Made by a program: the position numbers and the translations under genes. Below the pieces are notes generated by a model. The model worked only from the letters and a program-made list of their open reading frames with translations. It was not told where the DNA came from and made no database searches. Shown one piece after another: positions 164 through 15,493 of a stretch of 16,729 bases of DNA. The stretch is taken from IMG/VR virus record IMGVR_UViG_2619619126_000011, one strand, 5' to 3'. Source of the stretch: a virus (lineage: Duplodnaviria; Heunggongvirae; Uroviricota; Caudoviricetes). Position 1 is the first letter of the stretch; the number at the start of each line of letters is the position of its first letter.

Positions 164-1276
164 TTAGTTCTTCTTTTCGGATCCGGCACTTCTGGGGGGG
201 AAATCCAGCGATGGCTGGATTATGTCGTCAATTAAAAATGCGGCGAGTAGATTAGCAAATATCCACGCTTTCGCGAGTTCAGGTTCCTTTGCACGCAAAG
301 CATCCAGGTGCAGCAAACTTTTGAGCCGCTTAAAAGCCAGTTCAATTTGCCATCGCAGACGGTAACAATCAGCCACTTGCTCTGCTGAATATTCATCTTC
401 CGGTAATGATGTTAGCAATAGCACATGGCCCGCTGCTTCCAGCGTTTCCGCCTGAACTACTCGTCCTTTTCGACGATTCTCGCTGAGCAGTCGGGTTTTA
501 CTGATTAATGCTTTTTCGGGAGGAAGTGATACGGCAATGAGACGTGCCGGAAAGGGAGCTCCGGCTTTTTTATTACCTGAATTGCCTATCATTACAGTGG
601 TTTCACCGTTCTTACCGCAATCCAGCCCGCGCAGAAAACCCATCATGTCAAAGCGCATTCCTTCTGCAGTTAACCAGCGCAATCCTCGCCAGTGAACCCG
701 GACGATATAATCAGCTTCTCCAAAAGCAAGTGAGCGGATACATTCGGGACGCGAACCGAATCCCCGGTCAGCAATGCGTATCTCGTCTGCCGTTTGCGCA
801 AATCGGTCCAGCCGTTCAGCGTCTCTGCTGTCGGTTAGCTCAAAATCAGTGAACTGACAGGTATGAGGATCATATCCCATATGTAGTCGCCATTCAGCGC
901 TGCCGCCCCCGGGCGCACTGATTGCTGTTCCATCGACAAGACGCAATCTCTTTCCGCTTGTACAACCCGTAACTGCGGCGCGTACAGCAAGTGTTTGTGC
1001 GGCAAGTATGCCAAACCAGTCGGCGGCATTCCGCAGCCGCTTCAGGAGAGCCACGTCAGATAATGTTGCAACGTCATGGAGCTGAGCCCATGCAGTGACT
1101 TCACGTAATGACATCCCCCCGGGGCCGTAAGCCAGCCCCAGACGTAGCAGAGTTGCAGCATCACGAATTTCGCGGCGGCGGGTTAGAGCCCCGGCATTAC
1201 GTGCCGAAGTATCCAGTTCTTCGGGCTTACCAATATGGGCCAGAATTGCTGACCAGTTATCGTGAGAGTAATTCAT
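164..1276 (-). CDS. insL: IS186 transposase InsL (IS4-family DDE transposase), 370 aa
   Basis: ORF starting at ATG 1276 (MNYSHDNWSAILAHIGKPEELDTSARNAGAL...), matching the InsL N-terminus as I recall it. C-terminal YRLRWQIELAFKRLKS fits the IS4-family Y-R-E-K signature. The ORF-track start at GTG 1282 is two codons upstream. Confidence 0.9.
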   Translation of the reverse strand: MNYSHDNWSAILAHIGKPEELDTSARNAGALTRRREIRDAATLLRLGLAYGPGGMSLREVTAWAQLHDVATLSDVALLKRLRNAADWFGILAAQTLAVRAAVTGCTSGKRLRLVDGTAISAPGGGSAEWRLHMGYDPHTCQFTDFELTDSRDAERLDRFAQTADEIRIADRGFGSRPECIRSLAFGEADYIVRVHWRGLRWLTAEGMRFDMMGFLRGLDCGKNGETTVMIGNSGNKKAGAPFPARLIAVSLPPEKALISKTRLLSENRRKGRVVQAETLEAAGHVLLLTSLPEDEYSAEQVADCYRLRWQIELAFKRLKSLLHLDALRAKEPELAKAWIFANLLAAFLIDDIIQPSLDFPPRSAGSEKKN

Positions 1277-1308
1277 CGGCACGTTAAATCATATCAGGCG
1301 TAATACCA

Positions 1309-1331
1309 CAACCCTTAAGTTAGCGCTTATG
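1309..1331. repeat. IS186 right terminal inverted repeat
   Basis: 1309-1323 is a perfect reverse complement of window positions 1-15; extension to 1331 is inferred because the partner bases lie outside the window. Confidence 0.65.
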
Positions 1332-1353
1332 GGATTTCTCCCCGCCGGTCCTC

Positions 1354-1509
1354 TTACTCCCCAAGTTCGTAAGCTGTGAAGACAGCGACCTCCGTCTGGT
1401 CGGTTCGGATTCGTACCTCGCAGAGGTCTTTCCTCGTTACCAGTACCGTCACTATAACGGTTAAACAGATGACGATCAGGGCGACTAACATCGCCTTTTG
1501 CTGCTTCAT
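1354..1509 (-). CDS. Hok/Gef-family type I toxin (small membrane-depolarising peptide), 51 aa
   Basis: MKQQKAMLVALIVICLTVIVTVLVTRKDLCEVRIRTDQTEVAVFTAYELGE: one TM helix followed by the conserved RKDLCEV and TEVAVFTAYE motifs of HokC/HokD (RelF) as I recall them. ATG at 1509 is preceded by an AGGAGAAG RBS. Confidence 0.85.
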   Translation of the reverse strand: MKQQKAMLVALIVICLTVIVTVLVTRKDLCEVRIRTDQTEVAVFTAYELGE

Positions 1510-1566
1510 AGCCTGCTTCTCCTTGCCTTTCGGCACGTAAGAGGCTAACCTACATGTGCAAAGCAT
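1354..1566 (-). CDS. mok-like reading frame (in-frame upstream extension of hok, needed for hok translation in hok/sok systems)
   Basis: 70-codon frame MLCTCRLASYVPKGKEKQAMKQQ... with the same layout I recall for K-12 MokC, where Hok is the C-terminal 50 residues. The frame begins with a non-ATG start at 1566. Confidence 0.45.
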   Translation of the reverse strand: MLCTCRLASYVPKGKEKQAMKQQKAMLVALIVICLTVIVTVLVTRKDLCEVRIRTDQTEVAVFTAYELGE

Positions 1567-1768
1567 GAAATTGGCCTCAGATTAATGTTAAGCGTCTTGC
1601 CGGATGCGTAATGTTAACTGGGGCTTTTCTCTATCTGCCTTTGATGTTCATGCCCGAGGCAGATAGCCTCAAGTATCCGCAGCTATTTGTCTGCTGTTAC
1701 CACCTACCTGCGCCAATCACTGACTCTACAAAGATCTATCCGCGATAACATTTTGAGTTTAAGAACTT

Positions 1769-1797
1769 TTGCGTACGCACCAAAAGATGCATATACT
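1769..1797 (+). promoter_or_regulatory. Putative sigma70 promoter for the two-gene operon (TTGCGT -35, 17-bp spacer, TATACT -10)
   Basis: TTGCGT at 1769-1774 and TATACT at 1792-1797, about 40 bp upstream of the GGAG RBS and ATG at 1839. Sequence pattern only. Confidence 0.3.
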
Positions 1798-1838
1798 AGA
1801 CTAGTCATAGTTCTAATCTGCTTGATTATGGAGTCAGG

Positions 1839-2897
1839 ATGAGTTTCCTTTCTGAACAAGACGTACAAAATTTAGTCATTAATAAAATGATCTTTCACGT
1901 TGTAGGTAAGAATCTTGAAGCACCGACACTTCTCAAAGAAATAAAACCAGTTCAGCATGTGGATTTTTTTCTTGAACGTATCAAATCTTCACTGAAAGGA
2001 AATCTTTTCACTTTTCTGGAGAATTCAAATACCGAAAGAATCCTGCGTATCATTAGAGATAAAGCAGATGCTGAAGCTAATTGTTTTACAGAACAATCGA
2101 AGCTACTGGCCAGTGATTTTCAGTCACACCATTCTAGCGGTAACACGAGTATGGGATGCTTTTTCTTATTTGAATTGGTTTCAGATAAGGAAAAATTCTA
2201 TGCAATTATAAAATACGATAATGAAGATGTGGTTCGTTATGTTCTTGACGAAAAGTTATCTGAAGAACAAATGCCTACTTTAGAAAGATTTCATGAAACT
2301 TTCGTAAAAAAAGCTGAGGCAATGCAAAAAATAGCGTTAATTCAACTTGATCCAAGTGGGAAAGGCGGGAAAGTTATTGTAAAAGACAGGAGTAAAAGAA
2401 CCAATATTTCAGGATATTTTAAAGGCTTCTTAAATGTTAAAAGAGTCAACTCTGAAATTGAACTTTGCAATAAGCTTATTGATGCGCTGAAAATAACCTT
2501 CAAAAGGCATAAAGAATTATTGCCAGAGTCAATTCAAAAAAGCGGCGTAAATAAAATATATGAAGTTTTAAGCAGAGCTGATTTCGAATATAATCCTGAA
2601 GATGCTTCTCCGTTATTGACCAGCATTTTTGGGCCGTTAGATGAAAAATCACCAATTCTCAACACATTCAAAACTCAAACAAAAAATGCTGGTATTGAAG
2701 GCGAATCCTTTACTATAAAAGCAGATGGCATTCATAAACCACCAAGACGAAAAATTGAAACTGCAGAAAGTGTAGTAATTAGTTATAATGAAGATGACCG
2801 TCCAGAAATAAGAAACTTAGATGATGGGCGAAAACAAATTATTGTTACTACTGCGAGGATTATTACTGATGACATCGATACTTCAAAAAATCGATGA
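1839..2897 (+). CDS. Hypothetical protein, 352 aa, soluble; gene A of the low-GC two-gene operon, with a tentative by-eye resemblance to the NdpA/YejK (NA37) nucleoid-associated protein family
   Basis: ATG at 1839 preceded by GGAG (1830-1833). The long ORF is about 30% G+C, sampled by hand on 60-nt lines. No catalytic motif recognised. The NdpA resemblance rests on short patterns such as G-F-LF and Y-FKG and is not a search result. Confidence 0.8.
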   Translation: MSFLSEQDVQNLVINKMIFHVVGKNLEAPTLLKEIKPVQHVDFFLERIKSSLKGNLFTFLENSNTERILRIIRDKADAEANCFTEQSKLLASDFQSHHSSGNTSMGCFFLFELVSDKEKFYAIIKYDNEDVVRYVLDEKLSEEQMPTLERFHETFVKKAEAMQKIALIQLDPSGKGGKVIVKDRSKRTNISGYFKGFLNVKRVNSEIELCNKLIDALKITFKRHKELLPESIQKSGVNKIYEVLSRADFEYNPEDASPLLTSIFGPLDEKSPILNTFKTQTKNAGIEGESFTIKADGIHKPPRRKIETAESVVISYNEDDRPEIRNLDDGRKQIIVTTARIITDDIDTSKNR

Positions 2898-4302
2898 GTC
2901 TATACAGGCGTCAAGGAAAGACCCTGAATTTTTGGCATCAGAATCAATAAAAAATGATTCTGCGCGCGTTCTAATTTCTGCCAAAATGGACAAAGATGCA
3001 CTCATTCTTTGGCAGTACGTTTACGAAAACGTACCAAATTGGATTGAAATTACTGTTAAAGATGACTGTAATGATGAAGTAAAACCATCGTCATGCAGTG
3101 AAGGTGATAAACTTAACATTACGCTAAAATGCATTGCATTCGAAAATAACAGGTATATTTTTACGCTCGAAGGGTGGAATGTTTTTCTACACAATGATGA
3201 TTTAGTATCAATAACCAATAAAGTGAATATTCTCGGTTTGAAACATGGATTTGAAACTTTAGGATATTCTGTTGAGCCATGGAACCATGCTCCAGAAAAA
3301 ATTGAATCTAATGAAACCGTACGAACTTCAATCAATTTACAGAGCTACGTTAAATTCTATTCTAGTGAGTTCATGCCTGCATCTGATATAGCTCCTTGGG
3401 TACTTTATAAAATGCCTGAGGCAGAGGACAACTTTTTCAAAAAATGGTTACAAGTTTCCTGCAATATGCTTTGTCGCACTCTCGTTAATGAATTATTAGC
3501 AGATGAAAAGAAATCAATTTGTTTAACTGGAAAGCCACCAAAAAAATTAATTTATGGAGATCCAGACATTCTGCTTTCCGACTATTCAGTTTTACAAACT
3601 GTAATAAACTGGATCTTTATTGAGGGCAATGAGATTGAACTCAAACATACTTTCTTCACAAGTGAGTTAGCACGAGAATGGCCAGAGTATGTATCCTTCT
3701 GTGAGGGTTTACCAAAAAAACTCCCTATGGCCTTTGAGTCAGCAAAATTACTATATAAGGCCCACATTCGCGCTAGCAGCAGAGAGACTATTAAATCTCT
3801 GTCCGATCTAAGGAAAACCTTAGCTGAAGACACGCAAAAAATAATAAGTCAGTCTAAAGACATCACATCCGCTCTTTGGAAAGATCTGGCTCTGGTTATA
3901 AGTCTATTTGCAATAAAATATGCGCTAGACGCATCAAAGATTAATATAACCAATAACATATTCCCATATATGTTCTTCGCGTTATCTATATATATTTTTA
4001 TATCTCAGGTTACAACTCTCTTCATAAATAAAAATTACTTTAAGATACTTGATAATACTAGGCTAGTCTGGAGAGATAAACTATATGGTTTTCTTGATGA
4101 TACTGACTATGAGAATCTTGCAGTCACACCATTAAGAGAAGCATACAAAGCTTATCAGATTATAGCCACATTCGTTGTGATTCTGACTTTGCTGATTTCA
4201 TTTATAATGATCATATTAGGATTCTCAATGCTTGATGAACATGCTACGAATGCAATTACCTCTTGGCTCAGTTCTCACTTAATCAATAGTTACTGTAGTT
4301 AA
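2869..4302 (+). CDS. Hypothetical protein, ~477 aa, with a soluble N-terminal region and 2-3 C-terminal transmembrane helices; gene B of the operon
   Basis: Start ATG 2869 is chosen for the GAGGA 9 nt upstream; it overlaps the gene A stop by 29 nt. The alternative start is ATGATG at 2821. Hydrophobic stretches LALVISLFAIKYAL, IFPYMFFALSIYIFISQVTTLFI and YQIIATFVVILTLLISFIMIILGFSML lie near the C-terminus. AT-rich like gene A. Confidence 0.8.
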   Translation: MTSILQKIDESIQASRKDPEFLASESIKNDSARVLISAKMDKDALILWQYVYENVPNWIEITVKDDCNDEVKPSSCSEGDKLNITLKCIAFENNRYIFTLEGWNVFLHNDDLVSITNKVNILGLKHGFETLGYSVEPWNHAPEKIESNETVRTSINLQSYVKFYSSEFMPASDIAPWVLYKMPEAEDNFFKKWLQVSCNMLCRTLVNELLADEKKSICLTGKPPKKLIYGDPDILLSDYSVLQTVINWIFIEGNEIELKHTFFTSELAREWPEYVSFCEGLPKKLPMAFESAKLLYKAHIRASSRETIKSLSDLRKTLAEDTQKIISQSKDITSALWKDLALVISLFAIKYALDASKINITNNIFPYMFFALSIYIFISQVTTLFINKNYFKILDNTRLVWRDKLYGFLDDTDYENLAVTPLREAYKAYQIIATFVVILTLLISFIMIILGFSMLDEHATNAITSWLSSHLINSYCS

Positions 4303-4329
4303 TTTAAGGCGAGAGAAACTCGCCTTAAA
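4303..4329. terminator. Hairpin between the convergent gene B and Q-like gene (11-bp stem TTTAAGGCGAG / CTCGCCTTAAA, 5-nt loop)
   Basis: Perfect inverted repeat seen directly, lying between the gene B stop (4300-4302) and the Q-like stop (4333-4335). No clean U-tract follows the GC core on either strand, so intrinsic terminator function is uncertain. Confidence 0.4.
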
Positions 4330-4332
4330 AAA

Positions 4333-4851
4333 TCAACGGTAATAGATACAACCTGCAATAAATCCCATTGCCATTTGCATTTTTTTCCTTATTTTACCAT
4401 CTGAACATTCGTTTATCTTAGCTAAACAACGCAATGAAACTCCCATAACAAAATGAGCGATAATTAACTCATAGTCATCTATCCTATATTGTTTAAGCCT
4501 CAACATGCAGGTATCAATTATACCCCCTTCATCATTGCTGCACTGACGACGTGATTTTTTACCATGAGGAACAACATTTTTATATTTATCAGCTATTTCC
4601 TGCCAATCAATAGAACTATTTTCAGCTACAGCCCAGGCTCCCCAACCGTCCAAAATATCATATATATTAGCATTGCTATCTACCTGTTTTTTATATTCTT
4701 TTTTGAATCGCGCAAGAAGCATCCTAGCCATCGTTATTATTTCTATACTTGTAACTGATTCATAAGCATCAGGAGAAATAATTCTCCCATCACTTAATGC
4801 CCCATCACTAAGATTTGCTATTTCCAATAATCGTTCTTTAGTTATTTCCAT
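4333..4851 (-). CDS. Phage late antitermination protein Q family (QuuD-like), 172 aa, with an N-terminal extension
   Basis: WGAWA...RRQCSNDEGGIID...YELIIAHFVMGVSLRCLAK..CSDGKIRKKMQMAMGFI aligns by eye to E. coli QuuD as I recall it (WGAWA, RPQC and CSDG.IGKRLQ motifs). ATG 4851 has a GGAG RBS. Unlike the flanking prophage genes it is about 33% G+C. Confidence 0.65.
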   Translation of the reverse strand: MEITKERLLEIANLSDGALSDGRIISPDAYESVTSIEIITMARMLLARFKKEYKKQVDSNANIYDILDGWGAWAVAENSSIDWQEIADKYKNVVPHGKKSRRQCSNDEGGIIDTCMLRLKQYRIDDYELIIAHFVMGVSLRCLAKINECSDGKIRKKMQMAMGFIAGCIYYR

Positions 4852-5011
4852 TATTATCTCCACCGCCTTTTCGGGCGGCCTCCTGATGATTTGAGAGTGC
4901 AGGAATTCCTCCGGTTAAGGACTCTATTTTATTCACAGTGCTGAATTTAATTATTCAGATTTGGGTTATGCTTTCTCTTTCACTTCACCAAGTTCCGATT
5001 ATTAATTTGGC

Positions 5012-5434
5012 TCACAACAGCACCTCTTGAAAGTTTCCCCGATAAAACGCCAGTACACGCTGCATAACTTCTCTTTTACGGCACTCACTACAAATTATAT
5101 TATGACGCCTGTCGTAACGACGTATTTCTCCGTCAGATAACGAGCAGATAAGGTCAGGATCAACCATAACCGGTTCCTTCGACTTTGCACTCGAGAGTTT
5201 TTTGCTGGCGTTTTGCCAGTCTTTACGTGCCTGCTCAGACGGGAATAACCCGTAGCCAGAGTTGTATACGTAACCACTCGAAACCAGCTCTTTGGCGAGA
5301 ATACTTATCAGATATCTGGTTGCCCCTGTTTTAGCTTCCAGTTGTCGTAACGTCTCTCGCTCACTCTGGCGTACGAGATCAACAATCTGCCCTTTAATTT
5401 TTTCTCGCTCTTCCTGTGTTAATACTTTTGCCAT
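5012..5434 (-). CDS. Hypothetical prophage protein, 140 aa, with possible HTH and a C-terminal CxxC
   Basis: ATG at 5434 preceded by a strong GGGGAGGG RBS and tightly packed behind the upstream gene. The ORF-track start at 5500 would overlap that gene, so the internal Met is preferred. Confidence 0.7.
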   Translation of the reverse strand: MAKVLTQEEREKIKGQIVDLVRQSERETLRQLEAKTGATRYLISILAKELVSSGYVYNSGYGLFPSEQARKDWQNASKKLSSAKSKEPVMVDPDLICSLSDGEIRRYDRRHNIICSECRKREVMQRVLAFYRGNFQEVLL

Positions 5435-5450
5435 AAGCCCTCCCCTAGAA

Positions 5451-6176
5451 TCACTTTTCCGACACAATACGACTGGAGGAATCGACAATCTGACGGACAA
5501 TATCCTGGTGCTTGTTCAGCTCACGCAGCGCGGCGCAGACTCGCTCCCACTTCTGGACATAACTTTTCGCCCGGCGCAGTTCGCGGTTTGCCATTTGCAG
5601 CGATGGTATAATCAGGTCATTGGCTCGCGTTTCAGTGAACGATGGTAGTGACTGCACAATGTCCCCCACAGTATCTGTTTTAATTTCTTCCTGTGTTGCC
5701 GCTTCCTGTACTGGTAACGCAACACCGGCTGGCTGAGGAAAGCCTTTACCAGGTGTTTTCACTACCGATACAACTTTCGGCTCTGCTGGTAAATTACCGT
5801 CCGGCAGGCAGTAACGAAATTTACCGTTCTGATTTACGCGAATCAGACGACCTTTGCTGATGGCCATAGCCAGCGATGAGTTCACCCTGCGGGAAGTAAT
5901 TCTGAATATCAGTGCAAGTTCATCAGCCGCTTTAGGGCCATGCTGTTCAATCGCCTCGATCAGCATTTGCGCTGTCACTTTAGAAGCCTGTGCTACAGAT
6001 GCGTTTTCGTCGGTTTGAGTCAACCACCACATCGGGCCCTTGTTATCAGCTTCCCCACGACGCTTCAGTTTCCACAGCTCGTTAATCGCCTCATCCCGGG
6101 TCATTCCCAGACGTGCTGCCACTTCCTGGGAAGAGGCTTTTCCCATTGCTTTCAGTGCGTCAAAAACGGTCTCCAT
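5451..6176 (-). CDS. Hypothetical prophage protein, 241 aa, with an N-terminal winged-helix-like segment; sits in the ydaW/nin-equivalent position
   Basis: ATG at 6176 preceded by a GGGAGG RBS, 22 bp after the ydaV stop. SSQEVAARLGMTRDEAINELWKLKRRG looks HTH-like. Confidence 0.75.
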   Translation of the reverse strand: METVFDALKAMGKASSQEVAARLGMTRDEAINELWKLKRRGEADNKGPMWWLTQTDENASVAQASKVTAQMLIEAIEQHGPKAADELALIFRITSRRVNSSLAMAISKGRLIRVNQNGKFRYCLPDGNLPAEPKVVSVVKTPGKGFPQPAGVALPVQEAATQEEIKTDTVGDIVQSLPSFTETRANDLIIPSLQMANRELRRAKSYVQKWERVCAALRELNKHQDIVRQIVDSSSRIVSEK

Positions 6177-6198
6177 TAAAATTTCCTCCCGGTAAAAA

Positions 6199-6945
6199 TT
6201 ACTTCTCAATTCCTGGCTGACCAACATTCGGGCGCCAGCTCTCCCAGTTAAAATTCACCCATCGCCCGCCGTTCATGGTCATCCGATCCATAATCCTCTC
6301 GCCGAGCAATGTTTTCATGGCCTCATAGTTCAGGTTTGTCAGCATCCCCACGCTGCGGATCGACGCTGTCCGGCGATCAACAATCTGGTGCAGTACCACC
6401 TGCTCGTTTTTTGTCTCGCGCTGAATGCCAATTTCATCAAGAACCAGCAGATCCACTTCGCACAGTTCCCGCAAAAATTTTTCGCCTGATTGCCCGTCGT
6501 CATAGCTGGCGTGTAGAGCACTCATAACATCAGCCACGGTAACCACAATCACTGTCTGACCGTTTTTCAGCAGGCGATTCCCGATAGCCGCCGCCAGATG
6601 GTTTTTTCCGGTACCAGGTTTTCCGCTAAACGCAAAATTTGTACACCCGACCATCAGTTCATCGGCGATGGATTTCGCCTGGCTCAACGCGTATCGCTGG
6701 CCGTCGTTCTGCACCTGGTAATTCGAAAACGAGCATTTGCGGTGCAACGGCTGGATGCCGGAGCGATTCAGAATTTTTTCCACCCGCAACTGACGATTCT
6801 GGCGATTGATCTCCTCGCAACGTTTCTGGCCTTCTGCAAGTTGCCACTCGCGCCACTCCGCCACCGTCCTGAATGGCGCGGTTACATGTGGCGGGGCCAG
6901 TCTGCGGATACGTTCCAGAACGCCGCCTGTCGCAATATTTTTCAT
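6199..6945 (-). CDS. ydaV: DnaC/IstB-like AAA+ helicase loader (Rac YdaV), 248 aa
   Basis: Walker A GKPGTGKNHLAAAIG and Walker B-like DLLVLDEIG. Length and position match K-12 Rac ydaV. GGGGG RBS upstream of ATG 6945. Confidence 0.9.
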   Translation of the reverse strand: MKNIATGGVLERIRRLAPPHVTAPFRTVAEWREWQLAEGQKRCEEINRQNRQLRVEKILNRSGIQPLHRKCSFSNYQVQNDGQRYALSQAKSIADELMVGCTNFAFSGKPGTGKNHLAAAIGNRLLKNGQTVIVVTVADVMSALHASYDDGQSGEKFLRELCEVDLLVLDEIGIQRETKNEQVVLHQIVDRRTASIRSVGMLTNLNYEAMKTLLGERIMDRMTMNGGRWVNFNWESWRPNVGQPGIEK

Positions 6946-7348
6946 GGTCAGTTACCCCCTGAAGCCTGGCGGGATCGCACTGTCCGGAAACGAGACAGTG
7001 TTAACCTGTCGGAGCAACGTCTCAGGCCGAACACTTTTCGGCGCGAACAAGCCCTGGTATTCATTGGCGATGCTGTGTCGAATCACCTGCTCAGGGGTAA
7101 AACCCTGCTGGCGGAATTTTTCCAGTTCCCGTATCGCCCCGTTAGCGCCCTGCTCCGTTCGAATCGGTTTTCGCAATGCCTGCCTGAACTGGACCCACTC
7201 ATTCCAGAGTGTTTCTGGCAACCAGTCGGGCAGAGCAATGGCCTCCGGCTCGAATTGTTTAGACGCTCGTTTTTGCCGAGGGGGATTTAGGGGGAGATCA
7301 GTATTTATATCTTCCTCTTCCTCTGGTAACGCTTTTTGATCCGTTTGT

Positions 7349-7367
7349 GTAACGCTGGCAGCGTTAC
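7349..7367. repeat. 19-bp palindrome GTAACGCTGGCAGCGTTAC (copy 1 of 3)
   Basis: Seen directly; lies inside the ydaU coding region. Confidence 0.8.
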
Positions 7368-7556
7368 CTTTTCGCTTCAGTTCGCGTATTTTTGTAACTC
7401 TCTCGTTTGTAACCGCCCGTTTTTTTCGAGCTTTTTCCGTTATGACGCTCAAAGTTTGGTAGTGAAAGCACTCCATCACTTTCGACCAGCCATCCAACCT
7501 GAATTAACGCATCAGCAAAACCAGCCATAAAAGTGATACGGTCTATTGCACTTTTT

Positions 7557-7575
7557 GTAACGCCTCGAGCGTTAC
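7557..7575. repeat. 19-bp palindrome GTAACGCCTCGAGCGTTAC (copy 2 of 3)
   Basis: Seen directly; lies inside the ydaU coding region. A half-site GCGTTACC follows at 7580-7587. Confidence 0.8.
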
Positions 7576-7748
7576 ACTCTGCGTTACCGTCTATCATTTG
7601 TTGATCCGCCCATGCCCAGAAGCGAATGACTTTCCCTAATGCGGCATCTGGATCAATATTCAGAATCTCAGCAAGCCTGAATATTTCCGGCTTATCCGGC
7701 GTAATAACTTCGAGCTTTATCCAGTTTGAAGCCATTTGTTTTCACCTT

Positions 7749-7767
7749 GTAACGCTCGCAGCGTTAC
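7749..7767. repeat. 19-bp palindrome GTAACGCTCGCAGCGTTAC (copy 3 of 3), immediately upstream of the ydaU RBS
   Basis: Seen directly; lies between the ydaT stop (7813) and the ydaU start (7735). Confidence 0.8.
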
Positions 7768-7812
7768 ATTTAACTGATACCGAACAAAACAGTTCGGTAC
7801 GATTAATTTCAA

Positions 7813-8235
7813 TCAATGCACTACGACAGAATCGCTAGGAGAACCGCCGCCGCTGAAATGTGCTTTACGGTAAACGGCCTGGACTGCATCATCATGCGCA
7901 TCAATTGCCGTACTCAGTGCATCCTGTGCCGCCAGTAATGCACGGCGTTCCAGGGTATCGAAGATGCAGAGTCGGTGACGCAGCTCGCGAGGAAGAATTG
8001 CCAGAACCGCAGGGATCAGTTTCTGAATTTTTTCCCTTTGCGCATTCGTTTCACCTTTCAACCAACGATGATAGATATTCTGCTGATTGTTCCAGTCCTT
8101 GCCTGGTACCAGGGGCAATTCGCCGCCCCCCTGGTGCAGATATTCTTCAGTAATTGCGTTAGCGACCCACGCCTGCCCTTTTTCGGCTGCCAGGGCTAAC
8201 AACACTGATTCGATGTGCTCATGCTTGATTTTCAT
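7813..8235 (-). CDS. ydaT: YdaT (cII-like prophage regulator/toxin), 140 aa
   Basis: MKIKHEHIESVLLALAAEKGQAWVANAITEEY..., with length and position as in K-12 Rac. Its start overlaps the upstream gene stop as ATGA. Confidence 0.85.
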   Translation of the reverse strand: MKIKHEHIESVLLALAAEKGQAWVANAITEEYLHQGGGELPLVPGKDWNNQQNIYHRWLKGETNAQREKIQKLIPAVLAILPRELRHRLCIFDTLERRALLAAQDALSTAIDAHDDAVQAVYRKAHFSGGGSPSDSVVVH

Positions 8236-8486
8236 GAATCAACTCCCATCAGCTTTTTCGTAGTAGTTTTATTTCTGCCAATAGTTAAAATTGCATCGGC
8301 AGAAAATAATCCGTTTGATGCATGAGCGATTTTTTCAGCGTAATATGTTTCGCCGGTATATTCTGTGCGAGGCAATTTTCCGTTATCCATCCATTTGTAG
8401 ATTGCTCTTTGGCTGACACCACAAACGTCGGCCACAACAGAAACGCGAACAGTTTTGATTACATCTTCAAGTGTTTTCTGGTTCAT
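8232..8486 (-). CDS. ydaS: Cro-like HTH regulator (positional YdaS equivalent), 84 aa from ATG 8486
   Basis: Divergent from racR and translationally coupled to ydaT. HTH segment VCGVSQRAIYKWMDNGKLP. Start 8486 has a GAGG RBS and leaves a 79-bp operator region; the ORF-track start at 8558 would leave only 7 bp. The gene symbol is positional; the length differs from what I recall for K-12 YdaS. Confidence 0.65.
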   Translation of the reverse strand: MNQKTLEDVIKTVRVSVVADVCGVSQRAIYKWMDNGKLPRTEYTGETYYAEKIAHASNGLFSADAILTIGRNKTTTKKLMGVDS

Positions 8487-8565
8487 ATCATCCTCACAAT
8501 GTGAACTTTGAGTACATGCTATAACAGAACTGACAGTACATTCAAGAGCGAATATCATTGAACTT
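8487..8565. promoter_or_regulatory. Divergent cro/racR control region with repeated AGTACAT motifs (OR-like)
   Basis: AGTACAT at 8511-8517 and 8535-8541, 24 bp apart, between the divergent start codons. Promoter elements not resolved. Confidence 0.35.
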
Positions 8566-8985
8566 ATGGTTCATGAAGATAAAGCGCGTAAAGAGTTCGC
8601 CAGTAGGCTTGCGCTAGCCTGTGAAAACGCTGGTTATGAACAACATGGAAGGCAGGCAGAAATTGCCCGTCGAATGAAATTAACACCAAAAGCGGTTAGC
8701 AAATGGTTTAATGGTGAAACAATTCCTCGCCGAGAGAAATTAAGGGAATTAGCAACACTCATTGGAACAACACCAACCTATCTTTTGGGAGAGGATACAG
8801 AAGAAAGTGGACAGATACGTTTCTATCAGGAGTTAAATCCAAGACAAAAAATCATCATTGACCTTCTGGACGAGCTCCCTGACAGTGAGACAGATGAACT
8901 TTTAAAAACTCTTGAGGAGAAAAAACAGAAGTACAATGCAATTTACGAAGAGTTAGCACGAAAGAAAAAACAAAAAGCCTCTTAA
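8566..8985 (+). CDS. racR: RacR prophage repressor (HTH, no recognisable S24 peptidase domain), 139 aa
   Basis: MVHEDKARKEFASRLALACENAGYEQHGRQAEIARRMKLTPKAVSKWFNGETIP has an HTH. It sits divergent from the cro/ydaT operon as in K-12 Rac. An in-frame stop at 8509-8511 forbids a longer N-terminus. Confidence 0.8.
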   Translation: MVHEDKARKEFASRLALACENAGYEQHGRQAEIARRMKLTPKAVSKWFNGETIPRREKLRELATLIGTTPTYLLGEDTEESGQIRFYQELNPRQKIIIDLLDELPDSETDELLKTLEEKKQKYNAIYEELARKKKQKAS

Positions 8986-9052
8986 ACCAGCATAAATCCG
9001 GTAGCGTCCCCCTCCGGGTTTGTGCTTCACTTTATCCCGTCTCATTTTTTTA

Positions 9053-9105
9053 TACATAAAATGTACTTAAAGTACTTTACAATGATGAACACAAAGTACA
9101 TTATA
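9053..9105. promoter_or_regulatory. OL-like operator/promoter candidate downstream of racR, with overlapping palindromes and AGTACAT-family motifs
   Basis: TACATAAAATGTA (9053-9065), GTACTTAAAGTAC (9063-9075), ATGTACT (9061-9067, reverse complement of AGTACAT) and AGTACAT (9095-9101), all upstream of the rightward ydaG-ydaF-kilR-racC-recET genes. Confidence 0.3.
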
Positions 9106-9272
9106 TACCTACCAACCCACCCCGCCCCACAGAACGCCGGGCAATACTTCGAGTTACCAGGCAGTGGTCAGGGGTTAAGTAGCCAGCCCGAGGCGTATGA
9201 ACATGACGGCGGGATTCAAATTTTGCAGTGCAGCAGTTAGTTCCGCCACCCGGCGTTAAGGGGATAGATAAG

Positions 9273-9407
9273 ATGGTGCATTACGAAGTAGTTCAGTATT
9301 TGATGGATTGTTGCGGTATCACTTACAACCAGGCTGTGCAGGCTTTACGCAGCAACGACTGGGATCTCTGGCAGGCAGAAGTCGCTATACGTAGCAACAA
9401 GATGTGA
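9273..9407 (+). CDS. ydaG: Small Rac prophage protein YdaG, 44 aa
   Basis: ATG 9273 preceded by AAGGGGAT, translating to MVHYEVVQYLMDCCGITYNQAVQALRSNDWDLWQAEVAIRSNKM. Below the ORF-track size cut-off. Matches K-12 Rac by position and size. Confidence 0.7.
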   Translation: MVHYEVVQYLMDCCGITYNQAVQALRSNDWDLWQAEVAIRSNKM

Positions 9408-9417
9408 GATTCGCAAA

Positions 9418-9573
9418 ATGCAAAAAATCGACCTCGGCAACAACGAATCCCTGGTGTGCGGCGTGTTCCCCAACCAGGATGGAACGTTCACTGCCATGAC
9501 GTATACCAAAAGCAAAACATTTAAAACCGAAACTGGTGCGCGCCGATGGTTGGAGAAGCACACAGTAAGCTAA
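9418..9573 (+). CDS. ydaF: Small Rac prophage protein YdaF, 51 aa
   Basis: Translating to MQKIDLGNNESLVCGVFPNQDGTFTAMTYTKSKTFKTETGARRWLEKHTVS. Its 3' end overlaps the sieB 3' end by 4 bp, convergently. The RBS is weak. Confidence 0.65.
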   Translation: MQKIDLGNNESLVCGVFPNQDGTFTAMTYTKSKTFKTETGARRWLEKHTVS

Positions 9574-10058
9574 CGATTAAAACGTCTACTCCTGCTGTTC
9601 CAGAATAACTTCATAAAATGGGAGTATTTTTCGGTGACGAGATAATAAGAACAGTTTGCGCTATCACTCTGATGTTGAATGATGCCCTTCCGTTCTAATT
9701 TTTTCATAACCGGGTTACGGCAAGGAGAAGTGATAATAAGATTTCCTGTTTTAAGGAAATCTTTAAATACAGCGATTTCTTTCTCAGATAAACGAAGCAA
9801 TACTCGTTGCTCTGGTAGTAATGAATAATGCTTTTGAATATGTGCTCGCAATCTTGTGAAGGAAATGGCGACCACGAAAGAAAAGGCAAAAACGATAATC
9901 TGAAAGAGCCAAGGTATTTCAGTATAAGCATTGAATGCGACAGTAAACTCTTTCGGTATCAGCCAGAGAGTGAGACCAAAAATGATAATCGTATACATAA
10001 GTCTTTCGAGTGGCTCGTTAGCAAAAAGTTTCAACAATGGAGTAAATACATCCAACAT
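9570..10058 (-). CDS. sieB: Superinfection exclusion protein SieB, 162 aa
   Basis: ATG at 10058 (MLDVFTPLLKLF...) followed by hydrophobic helices. Length matches K-12 SieB. The ORF-track N-terminal extension to 10181 is not supported. Confidence 0.85.
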   Translation of the reverse strand: MLDVFTPLLKLFANEPLERLMYTIIIFGLTLWLIPKEFTVAFNAYTEIPWLFQIIVFAFSFVVAISFTRLRAHIQKHYSLLPEQRVLLRLSEKEIAVFKDFLKTGNLIITSPCRNPVMKKLERKGIIQHQSDSANCSYYLVTEKYSHFMKLFWNSRSRRFNR

Positions 10059-10499
10059 ATCAATAACTCTCAACTGTAAGGGTATTGAAATGTTAACACA
10101 AGCTCTCGCTGTAGGGGTATAGCCGAGACCACCGAAGCCCGGAGGTGGTGAAATAAAACCGGGCACAACACGAAGGCGCATTTCCGATATCCATAAAGAG
10201 TCGGTCTTGTCTGTTAAATTTAAATGGTGGGAGTGCGCCTCCGGTTGTAAATAACGACATTGCTGTGTGTAGTCCTGGCGGCATCAGTTTTTTTCTTGAA
10301 GTTCGGCTGATGTCCGCCCTTTTTAAAGTGAATTTTGTGATGCGGTGAATGCGGCTAAGCGCACGTGGCACAGTTAAAAGTCATGTTAGTCCTTATTGGT
10401 TTGGGTGGGAAAGCCGACTGTAATTGTTAACTGGTTGCAGTCACCTGGAGGCACCAGGCACCGCATCAACAAAGTTCATTTGTAAAAATGGAGATAATT

Positions 10500-10721
10500 A
10501 TGATTGCACATCACTTCGGAACTGATGAAATACCACGTCAGTGTGTGACTCCTGGCGATTATGTTCTTCATGAAGGCCGGACATATATTGCCTCGGCAAA
10601 CAATATTAAAAAGCGAAAACTATATATTCGTAACCTGACCACAAAAACATGCATTACTGACCGCATGATTAAAGTCTTCCTCGGTCGTGATGGTTTACCT
10701 GTAAAGGCGGAGTCATGGTGA
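10500..10721 (+). CDS. kilR: KilR (FtsZ-inhibiting killing protein of Rac), 73 aa
   Basis: [35 protein letters not shown]..., ATG 10500 with a GGAG RBS. Confidence 0.85.
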
Positions 10722-10891
10722 TGACTAAGAAAATAAAATGTGCTTGCCACCTTTGCAAAAAAGACGTTGAAGAAAGCAAAGCTATTGAAAGAATGCTTCA
10801 CTTCATGCACGGGATTTTATCAAAAGACGAACCGAGAAAATATTGCAGTGAAGCTTGTGCCGAAAAAGACCAGATGGCACATGAACTTTAA
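10721..10891 (+). CDS. ydaE: YdaE, small zinc-ribbon-like protein, 56 aa
   Basis: ATG overlaps the kilR stop (TGATG) and translates to [56 protein letters not shown]. Below the ORF-track cut-off. Confidence 0.7.
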   Translation: MTKKIKCACHLCKKDVEESKAIERMLHFMHGILSKDEPRKYCSEACAEKDQMAHEL

Positions 10892-10965
10892 TTAATTGAC
10901 TATTCGAAACTGAATTTATGCCAGAAATGGCAGGTATTCGCTCAACCTTAATTAAGGAGAAAAAC

Positions 10966-11241
10966 ATGATTACCAATTATGAAGCCACTGTTGTAACTAC
11001 CGATGACATTGTTCACGAGGTGAATCTGGAAGGAAAGCGCATTGGCTACGTAATTAAAACAGAAAATAAAGAAACCCCATTCACTGTGGTTGATATCGAT
11101 GGTCCATCAGGCAACGTAAAAACACTTGATGAAGGTGTCAAAAAAATGTGCCTGGTGCATATCGGAAAGAATCTGCCCGCAGAAAAAAAAGCCGAATTTC
11201 TGGCAACTCTAATTGCAATGAAATTAAAAGGTGAAATCTGA
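10966..11241 (+). CDS. racC: RacC, 91 aa
   Basis: ATG 10966 preceded by an AAGGAG RBS (MITNYEATVVTTDDIVHEV...). Length and position as in K-12 Rac. Confidence 0.85.
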   Translation: MITNYEATVVTTDDIVHEVNLEGKRIGYVIKTENKETPFTVVDIDGPSGNVKTLDEGVKKMCLVHIGKNLPAEKKAEFLATLIAMKLKGEI

Positions 11242-11246
11242 AAGAA

Positions 11247-11271
11247 ATAGCCTGCGTATGGCGCAGGCTAT
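11247..11271 (+). other. Strong hairpin between racC and recE (10-bp stem ATAGCCTGCG / CGCAGGCTAT, 5-nt loop)
   Basis: Perfect inverted repeat starting 6 bp after the racC stop. No U-tract follows, so it is not a canonical intrinsic terminator; it may be an attenuator, an RNA stability element or a protein site. Confidence 0.35.
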
Positions 11272-11342
11272 GAACAGTGTGTATCCGGCAAGATCATTCA
11301 CTGAACAAAACGAATTTTAATCTGAGTTGAGGTTAAAAAACA

Positions 11343-13943
11343 ATGAGCACAAAACCACTCTTCCTGTTACGGAAAGCGAAAAAATCATCCGGTGAACCTG
11401 ACGTCGTCCTGTGGGCAAGCAACGATTTTGAATCGACCTGTGCCACTCTGGACTACCTGATCGTTAAGTCAGGTAAAAAACTGAGCAGCTATTTTAAAGC
11501 TGTTGCCACGAATTTTCCTGTCGTTAATGACCTGCCCGCTGAAGGTGAGATCGATTTTACCTGGAGTGAACGCTATCAACTCAGCAAAGACTCCATGACA
11601 TGGGAACTAAAACCGGGAGCAGCACCAGACAACGCTCACTATCAAGGCAATACCAACGTCAACGGCGAAGACATGACTGAGATTGAGGAGAATATGCTAC
11701 TCCCAATTTCTGGCCAGGAACTGCCCATTCGTTGGCTTGCTCAACACGGCAGCGAAAAACCGGTAACGCACGTTTCACGCGACGGACTCCAGGCATTACA
11801 CATTGCTCGGGCTGAAGAACTACCGGCTGTTACTGCCCTGGCTGTTTCCCACAAAACCAGCCTGCTCGACCCGCTGGAAATTCGCGAACTCCACAAACTG
11901 GTTCGTGACACTGACAAAGTTTTCCCTAATCCTGGTAATTCAAACCTGGGACTGATAACTGCTTTTTTCGAAGCATACCTGAACGCTGACTACACCGATC
12001 GAGGACTGCTGACAAAAGAGTGGATGAAGGGTAATCGTGTTTCACACATCACTCGCACGGCTTCCGGTGCTAATGCTGGCGGCGGAAACCTCACCGATCG
12101 CGGCGAAGGTTTCGTACACGATCTGACGTCACTGGCGCGCGACGTAGCCACTGGCGTACTGGCCCGTTCAATGGATCTGGACATCTATAACCTTCATCCG
12201 GCACACGCTAAACGCATTGAGGAAATTATCGCTGAAAATAAACCGCCCTTTTCTGTTTTCCGCGACAAATTCATCACCATGCCTGGCGGGCTGGATTATT
12301 CCCGCGCCATCGTGGTTGCGTCCGTAAAAGAAGCACCAATTGGGATCGAGGTCATCCCCGCGCACGTCACTGAATATCTGAACAAAGCACTGACTGAAAC
12401 CGATCATGCCAACCCTGATCCGGAAATCGTGGATATTGCCTGCGGTCGCTCCTCTGCCCCGATGCCGCAGCGAGTAACAGAAGAAGGAAAACAGGATGAT
12501 GAAGAAAAACCGCAACCATCTGGAACAACGGCAGTTGAACAGGGAGAGGCTGAAACAATGGAACCGGACGCAACTGAACATCATCAGGACACGCAGCCGC
12601 TGGATGCTCAGTCACAGGTAAATTCTGTTGATGCGAAATATCAGGAACTGCGGGCAGAACTCCATGAAGCCCGGAAAAACATTCCATCAAAAAATCCTGT
12701 CGATGCCGATAAATTGCTTGCTGCATCACGTGGTGAATTTGTTGACGGAATTAGCGACCCGAACGATCCGAAATGGGTAAAGGGGATCCAGACTCGCGAT
12801 TGTGTGTACCAGAACCAGCCAGAAACGGAAAAAACCAGCCCAGATATGAATCAACCTGAGCCAGTAGTGCAACAGGAACCGGAAATAGCCTGCAATGCCT
12901 GCGGCCAGACTGGCGGGGGTAACTGCCCTGACTGTGGGGCGGTGATGGGCGACGCAACATACCAGGAAACATTCGATGAAGAGAGTCAGGTTGAAGCTAA
13001 GGAAAATGATCCGGAGGAAATGGAAGGCGCTGAACATCCGCACAATGAGAATGCTGGCAGCGATCCGCATCGCGATTGCAGTGATGAAACTGGCGAAGTC
13101 GCAGATCCCGTAATCGTAGAAGACATAGAGCCAGGTATTTATTACGGAATTTCGAATGAGAATTACCACGCGGGTCCCGGTATCAGTAAGTCTCAGCTCG
13201 ATGACATTGCTGATACTCCGGCACTATATTTGTGGCGTAAAAATGCCCCCGTGGACACCACAAAGACAAAAACGCTCGATTTAGGAACTGCTTTCCACTG
13301 CCGGGTACTTGAACCGGAAGAATTCAGTAACCGCTTTATCGTAGCACCTGAATTTAACCGCCGTACAAACGCCGGAAAAGAAGAAGAGAAAGCGTTTCTG
13401 ATGGAATGCGCAAGCACAGGAAAAACGGTTATCACTGCGGAAGAAGGCCGGAAAATTGAACTCATGTATCAAAGCGTTATGGCTTTGCCGCTGGGGCAAT
13501 GGCTTGTTGAAAGCGCCGGACACGCTGAATCATCAATTTACTGGAAAGATCCTGAAACAGGAATTTTGTGTCGGTGCCGTCCGGACAAAATTATCCCTGA
13601 ATTTCACTGGATCATGGACGTGAAAACTACGGCGGATATTCAACGATTCAAAACCGCTTATTACGACTACCGCTATCACGTTCAGGATGCATTCTACAGT
13701 GACGGTTATGAAGCACAGTTTGGAGTGCAGCCAACTTTCGTTTTTCTGGTTGCCAGCACAACTATTGAATGCGGACGTTATCCGGTTGAAATTTTCATGA
13801 TGGGCGAAGAAGCAAAACTGGCAGGTCAACAGGAATATCACCGCAATCTGCGAACCCTGTCTGACTGCCTGAATACCGATGAATGGCCAGCTATTAAGAC
13901 ATTATCACTGCCCCGCTGGGCTAAGGAATATGCAAATGACTAA
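11343..13943 (+). CDS. recE: RecE (exonuclease VIII), full length, 866 aa
   Basis: [30 protein letters not shown]... Length matches K-12 RecE. It sits directly upstream of recT with the stop overlapping the recT start. Confidence 0.95.
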
Positions 13944-14745
13944 GCAACCACCAATCGCAAAAGCCGATCTGCAAAAAACTCAGGGAAACCGTGCACCAGC
14001 AGCAGTTAAAAATAGCGACGTGATTAGTTTTATTAACCAGCCATCAATGAAAGAGCAACTGGCAGCAGCTCTTCCACGCCATATGACGGCTGAACGTATG
14101 ATCCGTATCGCCACCACAGAAATTCGTAAAGTTCCGGCGTTAGGAAACTGTGACACTATGAGTTTTGTCAGTGCGATCGTACAGTGTTCACAGCTCGGAC
14201 TTGAGCCAGGTAGCGCCCTCGGTCATGCATATTTACTGCCTTTTGGTAATAAAAACGAAAAGAGCGGTAAAAAGAACGTTCAGCTAATCATTGGCTATCG
14301 CGGCATGATTGATCTGGCTCGCCGTTCTGGTCAAATCGCCAGCCTGTCAGCCCGTGTTGTCCGTGAAGGTGACGAGTTTAGCTTCGAATTTGGCCTTGAT
14401 GAAAAGTTAATACACCGCCCGGGAGAAAACGAAGATGCCCCGGTTACCCACGTCTATGCTGTCGCAAGACTGAAAGACGGAGGTACTCAGTTTGAAGTTA
14501 TGACGCGCAAACAGATTGAGCTGGTGCGCAGCCTGAGTAAAGCTGGTAATAACGGGCCGTGGGTAACTCACTGGGAAGAAATGGCAAAGAAAACGGCTAT
14601 TCGTCGCCTGTTCAAATATCTGCCCGTATCAATTGAGATCCAGCGTGCAGTATCAATGGATGAAAAGGAACCACTGACAATCGATCCTGCAGATTCCTCT
14701 GTATTAACCGGGGAATACAGTGTAATTGATAATTCAGAGGAATAA
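13936..14745 (+). CDS. recT: RecT single-strand annealing recombinase, 269 aa
   Basis: [59 protein letters not shown]... The ATG lies within AATGACTAA, overlapping the recE stop. Confidence 0.95.
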
Positions 14746-14801
14746 TTCAGCCTGGCGGGGTAATGCACCGCCAACTTGAAATATTTTTTATGAGAAAAAT
14801 T

Positions 14802-14996
14802 ATGAGATATGACAATGTTAAACCATGTCCATTTTGTGGTTGTCCATCAGTAACGGTGAAAGCCATTTCAGGATATTACCGAGCGAAGTGTAACGGATGC
14901 GAATCCCGAACCGGTTATGGTGGAAGTGAAAAAGAAGCACTCGAAAGATGGAATAAACGAACCACTGGAAATAATAATGGAGGTGTTCATGTATAA
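14802..14996 (+). CDS. ralR: Restriction alleviation protein Lar/RalR, 64 aa
   Basis: MRYDNVKPCPFCGCPSVTVKAISGYYRAKCNGCESRTGYGGSEKEALERWNKR, with CxxC...CxxC. Position is downstream of recT as in Rac. Confidence 0.85.
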   Translation: MRYDNVKPCPFCGCPSVTVKAISGYYRAKCNGCESRTGYGGSEKEALERWNKRTTGNNNGGVHV

Positions 14997-15198
14997 AATT
15001 ACCGCCACTATTGAAAAGGAAGGTGGCACTCCTACTAACTGGACAAGATATTCAAAATCTAAACTAACGAAATCAGAATGCGAAAAAATGCTCTCAGGTA
15101 AAAAAGAAGCAGGCGTTTCCAGAGAGCAGAAAGTAAAACTGATAAATTTTAATTGCGAGAAACTTCAGTCCTCGAGAATTGCATTGTATTCAAATTAA
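14989..15198 (+). CDS. ydaC: YdaC (RcbA), 69 aa
   Basis: ATG 14989 with a GGAGGT RBS (MYKITATIEKEGGTPTNWTRYSKSKLTKSECEKMLSGKKEAG...). It overlaps the ralR 3' end. Confidence 0.8.
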   Translation: MYKITATIEKEGGTPTNWTRYSKSKLTKSECEKMLSGKKEAGVSREQKVKLINFNCEKLQSSRIALYSN

Positions 15199-15210
15199 AA
15201 CTTCATAGCT

Positions 15211-15224
15211 GATTATTAATAATC
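15211..15224. repeat. 14-bp perfect palindrome GATTATTAATAATC upstream of xis
   Basis: Seen directly between ydaC and xisR. Confidence 0.8.
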
Positions 15225-15276
15225 AACATCGGGCGTCAATTTCAGTCTAACATTGGCGCCTGCCAGAGGTGATGCG

Positions 15277-15492
15277 ATGGCACAAGTAATCTTTAATGAA
15301 GAGTGGATGGTTGAATACGGCCTGATGCTTCGCACTGGTCTGGGGGCCAGACAAATTGAAGCATACCGCCAGAACTGTTGGGTGGAGGGCTTCCACTTCA
15401 AACGAGTATCTCCTTTAGGTAAGCCAGACAGCAAACGAGGGATTATCTGGTACAACTATCCAAAGATAAATCAGTTTATCAAAGACTCATGA
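15277..15492 (+). CDS. xisR: Excisionase XisR (YdaQ), 71 aa
   Basis: ATG 15277 ([46 protein letters not shown]...). Its stop is 1 bp from the int start. The ORF-track TTG start at 15253 is less likely. Confidence 0.8.
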
Positions 15493-15493
15493 T

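Follow-up and report, generated by a model that had tools for sequence, protein, structure and literature searches.

What is the function of two low-GC genes that lie between a Q-like antiterminator gene and a hok locus in a prophage of Escherichia coli? The question is raised by genes A and B of the Caudoviricetes record IMGVR_UViG_2619619126_000011, a stretch of 16,729 nucleotides (nt) that is called the window here. A reading of this DNA without database searches (the sequence-only reading) had proposed that the two genes form an undescribed defence or abortive-infection module, neither product of which could be assigned to a named family. The analysis reported here supports the defence proposal: A is a YejK-like protein, B is an acidic protein with two transmembrane (TM) segments, the two are coinherited on mobile elements, their layout is that described for type II PANGU systems, and A is listed by DefensePredictor. 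It is very probable that the two-gene cassette is a defence module, and we consider it likely that it is a lysogen-expressed, PANGU type II-like abortive-infection cassette that is carried as antisense cargo of a Rac-like prophage. The description of the module as new has been overtaken by the literature of 2025 and 2026, since the class was named in 2026: PANGU systems are two-gene operons that encode a YejK-like nucleoid-associated protein (NAP) and an effector (Li et al., April 2026, bioRxiv 10.64898/2026.04.06.716658). The two genes are as follows.

1839-2897, plus strand: gene A, 352 amino acids (aa), from the open reading frame call
2869-4302, plus strand: gene B, 477 aa, start at ATG 2869

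Gene A encodes a YejK-like nucleoid-associated protein

The view that neither product could be assigned does not hold for gene A, which clearly belongs to the Pfam family NA37 (YejK/NdpA family; E value, 1.2e-12; 48.3 bits against a cutoff of 24.6). The match is full-length, covering residues 18 to 335 of the protein and positions 1 to 316 of the 325 positions of the model, and the RefSeq entry for the protein, WP_001586997.1, is named "nucleoid-associated protein." The AlphaFold2 model of A was confident (predicted local distance difference test score [pLDDT], 84), and its sole significant fold match in the PDB was E. coli YejK (9be2; E value, 7.2e-7; probability, 1.00), with about 14% identity in the structural alignment. 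Hydropathy analysis found no hydrophobic membrane segments in A. The exact gene A protein also appears in the DefensePredictor table (Science 2026, PMC13092281) as a "Predicted novel defense gene" with a log-odds score of 8.42, an entry that is a prediction only. By analogy with the PagA proteins of PANGU systems, A is presumed to be the sensor of the pair.

In the same structural search, the seventh PDB match of the A model was KwaB of the Kiwa defence system (9mtn_K), which aligned over its full length and weakly (E value, 0.23). As judged from the models, this match may be a sign that KwaB and the NA37 proteins are distantly related in fold.

Gene B encodes a membrane protein with an acidic N-terminal domain

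The profile hidden Markov model (HMM) searches and the structure prediction with Foldseek that the sequence-only reading had recommended, which placed A in NA37 and matched it to YejK, gave B neither a Pfam or PADLOC family nor an informative structural match. The RefSeq entry for B, WP_001586996.1, is a "hypothetical protein," and nothing above threshold was found for it in Pfam, PADLOC, NCBIfam, PHROGs, or the PDB sequences; a weak Pfam Saf_2TM match at residues 422 to 455 (E value, 0.045) fell below threshold and is not relied on here. The AlphaFold2 model of B was confident (pLDDT, 87) and consists of an alpha/beta region from residue 1 to about residue 270, followed by helices at residues 277 to 355, 364 to 404, 411 to 454, and 457 to 476. 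Four parts of the protein can be distinguished.

2869-3693, plus strand: N-terminal domain, residues 1-275; acidic, alpha/beta, with mixed strands and helices and a pLDDT of >90
3694-3933, plus strand: juxtamembrane "stalk," residues 276-355; helices 277-303 and 305-355, net positive charge
3958-4029, plus strand: TM segment 1, residues 364-387; Kyte-Doolittle 19-residue windows of >1.6, within helix 364-404
4141-4245, plus strand: TM segment 2, residues 425-459; Kyte-Doolittle maximum of 3.07, within helix 411-454

The N-terminal domain carries a net charge of -14 and has an isoelectric point (pI) of 4.8, and it is acidic in all 58 of the aligned B homologues, with net charges that range from -4 to -21 (median, -12.5). 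No informative fold match was found for this domain in the PDB. Given its composition, and by comparison with the published effectors, it is a candidate DNA-mimic ("DMK"-like) domain that would bind A. The position of TM segment 1 is conserved across the B family, and TM segment 2 is conserved in nearly all of its members; the claim that a soluble first protein is paired with a second protein that has C-terminal hydrophobic helices was therefore borne out.

Conservation within B is highest in the stalk, where the mean pairwise identity is 44%, versus 27% in the N-terminal domain and 25% in the TM region. Its invariant residues include A292, A298, H299, T307, L311, R315, L318, Q328, W337, and D339. 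Across residues 250 to 340, just before the membrane, the conserved stretch reads ELKHTF..ELAREWP and then A..LLYKAHIR..S.ET.KSLSDLRK. We presume, again by analogy, that gene B encodes the effector and is Pag2B-like; for annotation purposes, it need no longer be left as "hypothetical."

Genes A and B are inherited together on mobile elements

The B family comprises 669 cluster representatives at an E value of 1e-3 or less among 1.84 billion. A survey of one genome per species yielded 69 loci, and five more that were fetched separately brought the total to 74. At every one of these 74 loci with a B homologue, an A homologue lay directly upstream on the same strand and overlapped the B gene. The hosts include Enterobacterales, Pseudomonas, Rhizobiales, Sphingomonadales, Acetobacteraceae, methanotrophs (Methylococcales), and Betaproteobacteria, as well as a Terriglobus (Acidobacteria) and a metagenome-assembled genome from the Bacteroidetes. 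Over 68 loci, the pairwise identities of A and B were tightly correlated (r = 0.96), with A the more conserved protein in 96% of the comparisons. Mapping the conservation of the pair, as had been proposed, thus revealed obligate pairing across several phyla and on mobile elements.

Within E. coli, the full pair is patchily distributed, being present in 29 of 5,426 complete genomes, and the species holds two subfamilies of the B family. Ten plasmids carry the pair. It is also found beside the repressor gene of a temperate Thiobacimonas phage, immediately following P4-type integrases in E. coli, Citrobacter, and Serratia, and in an integrative mobilisable element of Pantoea.

The neighbours of several loci were labelled by Pfam, one locus at a time. 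An integrase island of Serratia marcescens begins with the A-B pair and also encodes Saf_2TM-SAVED, Prok-JAB, and ThiF-family proteins, a CBASS-like accessory set (L086, positions 14903 to 17500). In Sphingomonas, the pair is closely followed downstream, beyond an intervening divergent helix-turn-helix gene, by RNase_T, Multi_ubiq, and DUF6791-ThiF genes (L002, positions 8794 to 13096), which may together form a defence operon for ubiquitin-like conjugation. A giant NERD-helicase protein is encoded next to the pair at one locus, and MazE and PIN neighbours were seen at another.

The exact A and B sequences were reported in a single 90%-identity cluster of 386 members despite being unrelated proteins. 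Read-through or fused gene calls that span the overlap of the two genes probably account for this shared cluster, which would then be an artefact.

The pair as a probable abortive-infection cassette

Type II PANGU systems consist of a NAP, Pag2A, and an effector, Pag2B, which has a C-terminal TM region and an N-terminal acidic DNA-mimic (DMK) domain (bioRxiv 10.64898/2026.04.06.716658). According to the same preprint, the tested type II example from uropathogenic E. coli, PANGU-Ecu, confers 3 to 4 logs of protection, requires both genes, and produces an abortive-infection phenotype. Phage T4 escapes it by mutations in denA, which encodes EndoII; upon infection, Pag2A fused to green fluorescent protein (Pag2A-GFP) leaves the nucleoid; and the DMK domain binds Pag2A with a dissociation constant of 19 nM. 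The preprint states that the mode of Pag2B activation is unknown.

The NAP operons of the preprint were defined by an NA37 (IPR007358) HMM E value of <1e-10, a NAP of at least 300 aa, and a neighbouring gene at a distance of <40 bp. With an E value of 1.2e-12 and 352 aa, gene A falls within the NAP core of this definition, as scored with Pfam's HMM and not with the authors' own. The operon arrangement is likewise present: A and B overlap by 29 nt, the partner is not a NAP, and the gene order is the same at 74 of 74 loci. Of the features described for type II, B has the C-terminal TM region, in the form of the family-conserved helices at 364 to 387 and 425 to 459, and an N-terminal domain that is acidic in all 58 members, a likeness of composition only. 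Individual loci lie beside defence genes and others occupy prophage slots, integrase islands, or plasmids, a linkage for which there is no baseline.

Starting from the observed family and fold of A, the architecture and charge pattern of B, the obligate pairing, the mobility, and the cargo position, we infer by analogy with PANGU-Ecu that A would bind DNA and B, that a phage-derived trigger would release A, and that the outcome would be membrane damage. In this model, A would normally be kept on the host chromosome, as suggested by its family and by the Pag2A-GFP data. An infecting phage such as T4 would degrade the chromosome by means of EndoII (denA) and so release A. Free A could then dock on the acidic, possibly DNA-mimicking, N-terminal domain of B, and this binding may act through the conserved juxtamembrane helices to switch on the two-helix membrane domain. 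The inner membrane would be damaged or depolarised, and the infected cell would stop supporting phage growth. If this model is correct, the prophage allows its E. coli host to detect the destruction of the chromosome by lytic phages, for example T4, and to abort the infection.

Several points weigh against this interpretation. The pair is known from its sequence and from models, and the protection data stem from PANGU-Ecu; moreover, B has been matched to the tested Pag2B by its published description and not by sequence. The acidity of the N-terminal domain of B is only moderate (pI 4.8), and its DNA-like shape is an assumption. Likewise, since A is near neutral (pI 6.7; family median, 5.9), its binding to DNA is assumed. 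Fold searches with B returned generic helical bundles only and no pore-forming homologue. BLASTP detected no similarity between A and DS-1A or between B and DS-1B, the proteins of an experimentally validated NA37-containing unit that is discussed below. Neither A nor B had a single family match in PADLOC-DB v2 (2023), even at an E value of 1 or less; because PADLOC v2 contains a model of neither, there is no independent call from a defence database. Finally, the evidence from neighbouring defence genes is anecdotal, as it comes from single loci with no baseline count.

Three other explanations were considered, each of which is less well supported than a type II-like abortive-infection cassette. 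The one that survives best, and the most interesting of them, is that the pair is a NAP-based defence cassette whose effector is unrelated to the tested Pag2B, so that it would represent a separate PANGU-like cluster with an output other than simple membrane disruption. B matches neither any family nor DS-1B, and its conservation peaks in the stalk, which has charged residues and histidines that are invariant, and not in the TM region or the acidic domain; the conserved E257/H260/E266/R269/W271...H299 set of the stalk could serve in catalysis or signalling. In addition, NAP operons of dozens of types are described in the preprint, and in clusters 3, 4, and 10 the partners are hypothetical proteins. 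However, an acidic N-terminal domain followed by a C-terminal TM region is the exact layout described for Pag2B, the tested type II system comes from E. coli, where the B family occurs in two subfamilies, and Cluster 2 is reported to be inter-phylum, as is the B family. On balance, we regard this explanation as unlikely. The narrower proposition that B belongs to an effector family other than Pag2B, with its invariant stalk (E257, H260, E266, R269, W271, H299, R315, and others) as a new switch or catalytic element by which the binding of the NAP would lead to damage of the membrane, is doubtful, if to a slightly lesser degree. If B does prove to be distinct, the pair would define a new PANGU-like cluster and would provide a tractable E. 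coli model of a NAP that activates a membrane effector.

It is much less probable that the pair has a non-defence accessory role, either in chromatin, with a prophage-encoded protein tethering or organising DNA at the membrane, or in superinfection exclusion at the stage of DNA entry, without suicide of the host. The A family does include the housekeeping chromosome-associated protein YejK, B is membrane anchored, and the same prophage element carries the exclusion gene sieB; however, the patchy distribution in E. coli, the movement of the cassette among unrelated mobile elements and slots, its co-location with defence genes, and the scoring of gene A as defensive by DefensePredictor (PMC13092281) all argue otherwise, as does the fact that the tested analogues are described as working by abortive infection.

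The least credible explanation, a maintenance or addiction module in which B is a membrane toxin restrained by A and stabilises the prophage, would suit a mobile, overlapping two-gene operon with one membrane protein that lies beside hok/sok in a prophage rich in toxin-antitoxin loci (RalR/RalA and YdaT), but neither protein resembles the members of any toxin-antitoxin family, an antitoxin in the form of a 352-aa NAP would be unusual, the tested NAP-effector systems are reported to be nontoxic whether as single genes or as the pair (bioRxiv 10.64898/2026.04.06.716658), and A is the more conserved partner, which would be unlike a fast-evolving antitoxin.

Expression signals of the A-B operon

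The following signals accompany the two genes.

1769-1797, plus strand: candidate promoter TTGCGT-17 nt-TATACT (sequence read; weak, candidate only)
1830-1833, plus strand: Shine-Dalgarno sequence GGAG of gene A, 5 nt 5' of ATG 1839 (sequence read)
2855-2859, plus strand: Shine-Dalgarno sequence GAGGA of gene B, within the 3' end of gene A (sequence read)
4303-4313/4319-4329, no strand assigned: hairpin between the convergent B and Q genes, 11-bp stem and 5-nt loop

Much of what the sequence-only reading had reported about the organisation of the operon was confirmed. The two reading frames run in the same direction and share 29 nt, an overlap that recurs in homologues, and the sizes of the products agree with the 352 and about 477 aa that had been given. 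The start of gene B is best placed at ATG 2869 because the consensus N terminus of 58 homologues aligns with that methionine; the GAGGA located 9 nt before it supports the same start. Ribosome-binding sites are present before both genes, and the position of GAGGA inside the end of gene A, together with the overlap of the genes, suggests from the sequence that translation of A and B is coupled. The GC content was also low as claimed, at 0.33 to 0.36 over positions 1750 to 4500, versus about 0.45 to 0.57 in the flanks.

The claims about the two ends of the transcript fared less well. The proposed sigma70-like promoter, TTGCGT-17-TATACT, matches 8 of 12 consensus positions and fails a consensus promoter scan, and promoter-like sites around the pair occur at the level expected by chance (11 found versus 11.9 expected from shuffled sequence). 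The actual promoter must lie in the 160 nt that separate sok from gene A (positions 1679 to 1838). At the 3' end, the 11-bp-stem hairpin on which the operon was said to end is real and very stable (free energy, -21.7 kcal/mol including flanking pairs; z = -7.3); it is not a canonical intrinsic terminator, since neither strand has a U tail, with A6 following the hairpin on the plus strand and no T run on the minus strand. It is therefore not called a terminator here.

The prophage and its cargo slot

Positions 1331 to 16729 of the window are 99.9% identical by blastn to a Rac-like prophage at ttcA in E. coli Ecol_316. In the Ecol_316 element, the pair is surrounded by phage genes that all lie on the minus strand, among them the replication genes, the Q-family gene, hok, and the lysis cassette; the A-B pair, on the plus strand, is therefore antisense cargo. 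The neighbouring features in the window are listed below.

4333-4851, minus strand: antiterminator Q-family gene (Pfam Phage_antitermQ; E value, 1.3e-33; RefSeq coding sequence), convergent with B
1354-1678, minus strand: hok/sok type I toxin-antitoxin locus, divergent from gene A
1354-1509, minus strand: hok (Pfam HOK_GEF; E value, 2.6e-21)
1504-1678: sok RNA (Rfam sok, 99.4 bits)
164-1282, minus strand: IS4-family (IS186-like) transposase (NCBIfam IS4 family transposase; E value, 1.1e-38)

The pair thus lies, as had been stated, between a Q-like gene and a hok/IS186 junction. The IS4-family element spans positions 1 to 1330 of the window and abuts hok, and this stretch is absent from the Ecol_316 prophage, in which hok is followed instead by DUF1367, DUF1364, and DUF1133 genes, tRNAs, and lysis genes. 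The Q allele of the window is found at an identity of at least 99% in 29 genomes. A second gene occupies the usual late-antiterminator position in the Ecol_316 relative, beside tRNA and lysis genes.

The comparison of this site with the slot in which lambdoid phages carry stx was upheld in part. Since further phage genes, tRNAs, and lysis genes follow hok, the interval between the Q-family gene and hok is not strictly the Q-to-lysis slot of stx. However, in another lambdoid prophage, a pair that is 62% identical lies in antisense orientation with the late Q gene on one side and a methylase gene plus lysis cassette on the other, which is the Q-to-lysis slot. The same lambdoid prophage has a reverse transcriptase gene (RVT_1, 428 aa) and an 8xMP-domain gene in the interval between hok and DUF977; the stretches that hold the 62%-identical pair and this hok-DUF977 cargo are positions 6971 to 9434 and 13968 to 16315 of L089.

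In sister prophages with Q genes that are 88 to 92% identical, this Q-hok interval is occupied by other antisense cargo, and it is for this reason regarded as a site of cargo exchange. One kind of cargo encodes a DUF6731 protein and, with it, a small protein of 159 aa whose PADLOC match is weak and RexB-like (E value, 0.0015). The other kind, found in STEC308 and E2348/69, is a three-gene cluster (363, 142, and 197 aa) that has no Pfam match and a single weak PADLOC match, to PDC-S54 (E value, 0.0014). These alternative cargo stretches are at positions 3566 to 4975 of L083, 2742 to 4892 of L084, and 2733 to 4883 of L085, and their operons, as yet uncharacterised, are candidates for defence cargo. 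Rac- and Qin-like prophages exchange antisense operons in their Q-hok interval, and several of these operons are uncharacterised and worth screening.

Two further observations concern the surroundings of hok. An IS421-type element lies near hok in STEC308 (L084, positions 937 to 2049). In the window, the early region lies between two type I toxin-antitoxin loci, namely, hok/sok at 1354 to 1678 and RalR/RalA at 14995 to 15173 (Rfam RalA, 225 bits).

Comparison with known systems

The general logic of the proposed cassette, a soluble sensor that gates a small helical membrane effector and is carried by a prophage, is shared with lambda RexAB and the CBASS SAVED-2TM systems. There is no homology between these systems and the pair; PADLOC gave 0 matches, and the Saf_2TM match of B (E value, 0.045) was subthreshold.

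E. coli YejK (NdpA) is like gene A in Pfam family and in fold. It differs in being a housekeeping nucleoid protein, whereas A is prophage cargo, is paired with B, and is present in 0.5% of genomes. We know of no description of a partner gene for YejK. Housekeeping YejK/NdpA is a stand-alone core gene in essentially all strains; gene A, found in a prophage and in 29 of 5,426 genomes, is not of this kind and should not be taken for a housekeeping nucleoid protein in annotation.

DS-1 (working ID D390) is among 42 experimentally validated anti-phage units (PMC13092281). It consists of WP_000355468.1, an NA37 protein, and WP_000150292.1, and like the pair it is a two-gene unit of E. coli in which the NA37 gene comes first. 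DS-1B resembles B in having an acidic N-terminal part (net charge, -9), a hydrophobic and basic C-terminal part, and a length of about 400 aa; its exact length is 404 aa, versus 477 aa for B. DS-1A has an additional N-terminal zinc-ribbon-like segment, with NA37 beginning at residue 42, which is absent from A. Homology of the pair to DS-1 was considered and rejected: BLASTP gave no significant alignment for A or for B, so that only the NA37 class is shared, and hhalign of the B family profile against DS-1B returned a probability of 0.2%.

Type I PANGU systems, which pair Pag1A with the GRel toxSAS effector Pag1B, have the same sensor family as the pair, a YejK-like NAP. As described in the preprint, they also share the principle that the NAP binds the acidic DNA-mimic domain of the effector once the chromosome has been degraded. 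In contrast to B, which is a membrane protein with no toxSAS domain, the type I effector is a soluble, pppGpp-producing alarmone synthetase.

The closest likeness is to the type II PANGU systems. The pair is known from sequence and models, and it has been likened to Pag2A and Pag2B through their published description; it is possibly the already tested PANGU system itself. Given that the class was named only in 2026 and that the activation of its membrane effector is unsolved, a copy that occurs naturally in E. coli, complete with its own regulatory region and backed by a well-defined alignment of the family, would be a useful model. As far as the preprint's account extends, type II PANGU and the pair have in common a bicistronic organisation in which a YejK-like NA37 NAP of about 350 aa comes first, a second gene, overlapping the first or directly adjoining it, whose product joins an acidic N-terminal domain to a C-terminal TM region, and a mobile distribution that includes E. 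coli and extends across phyla.

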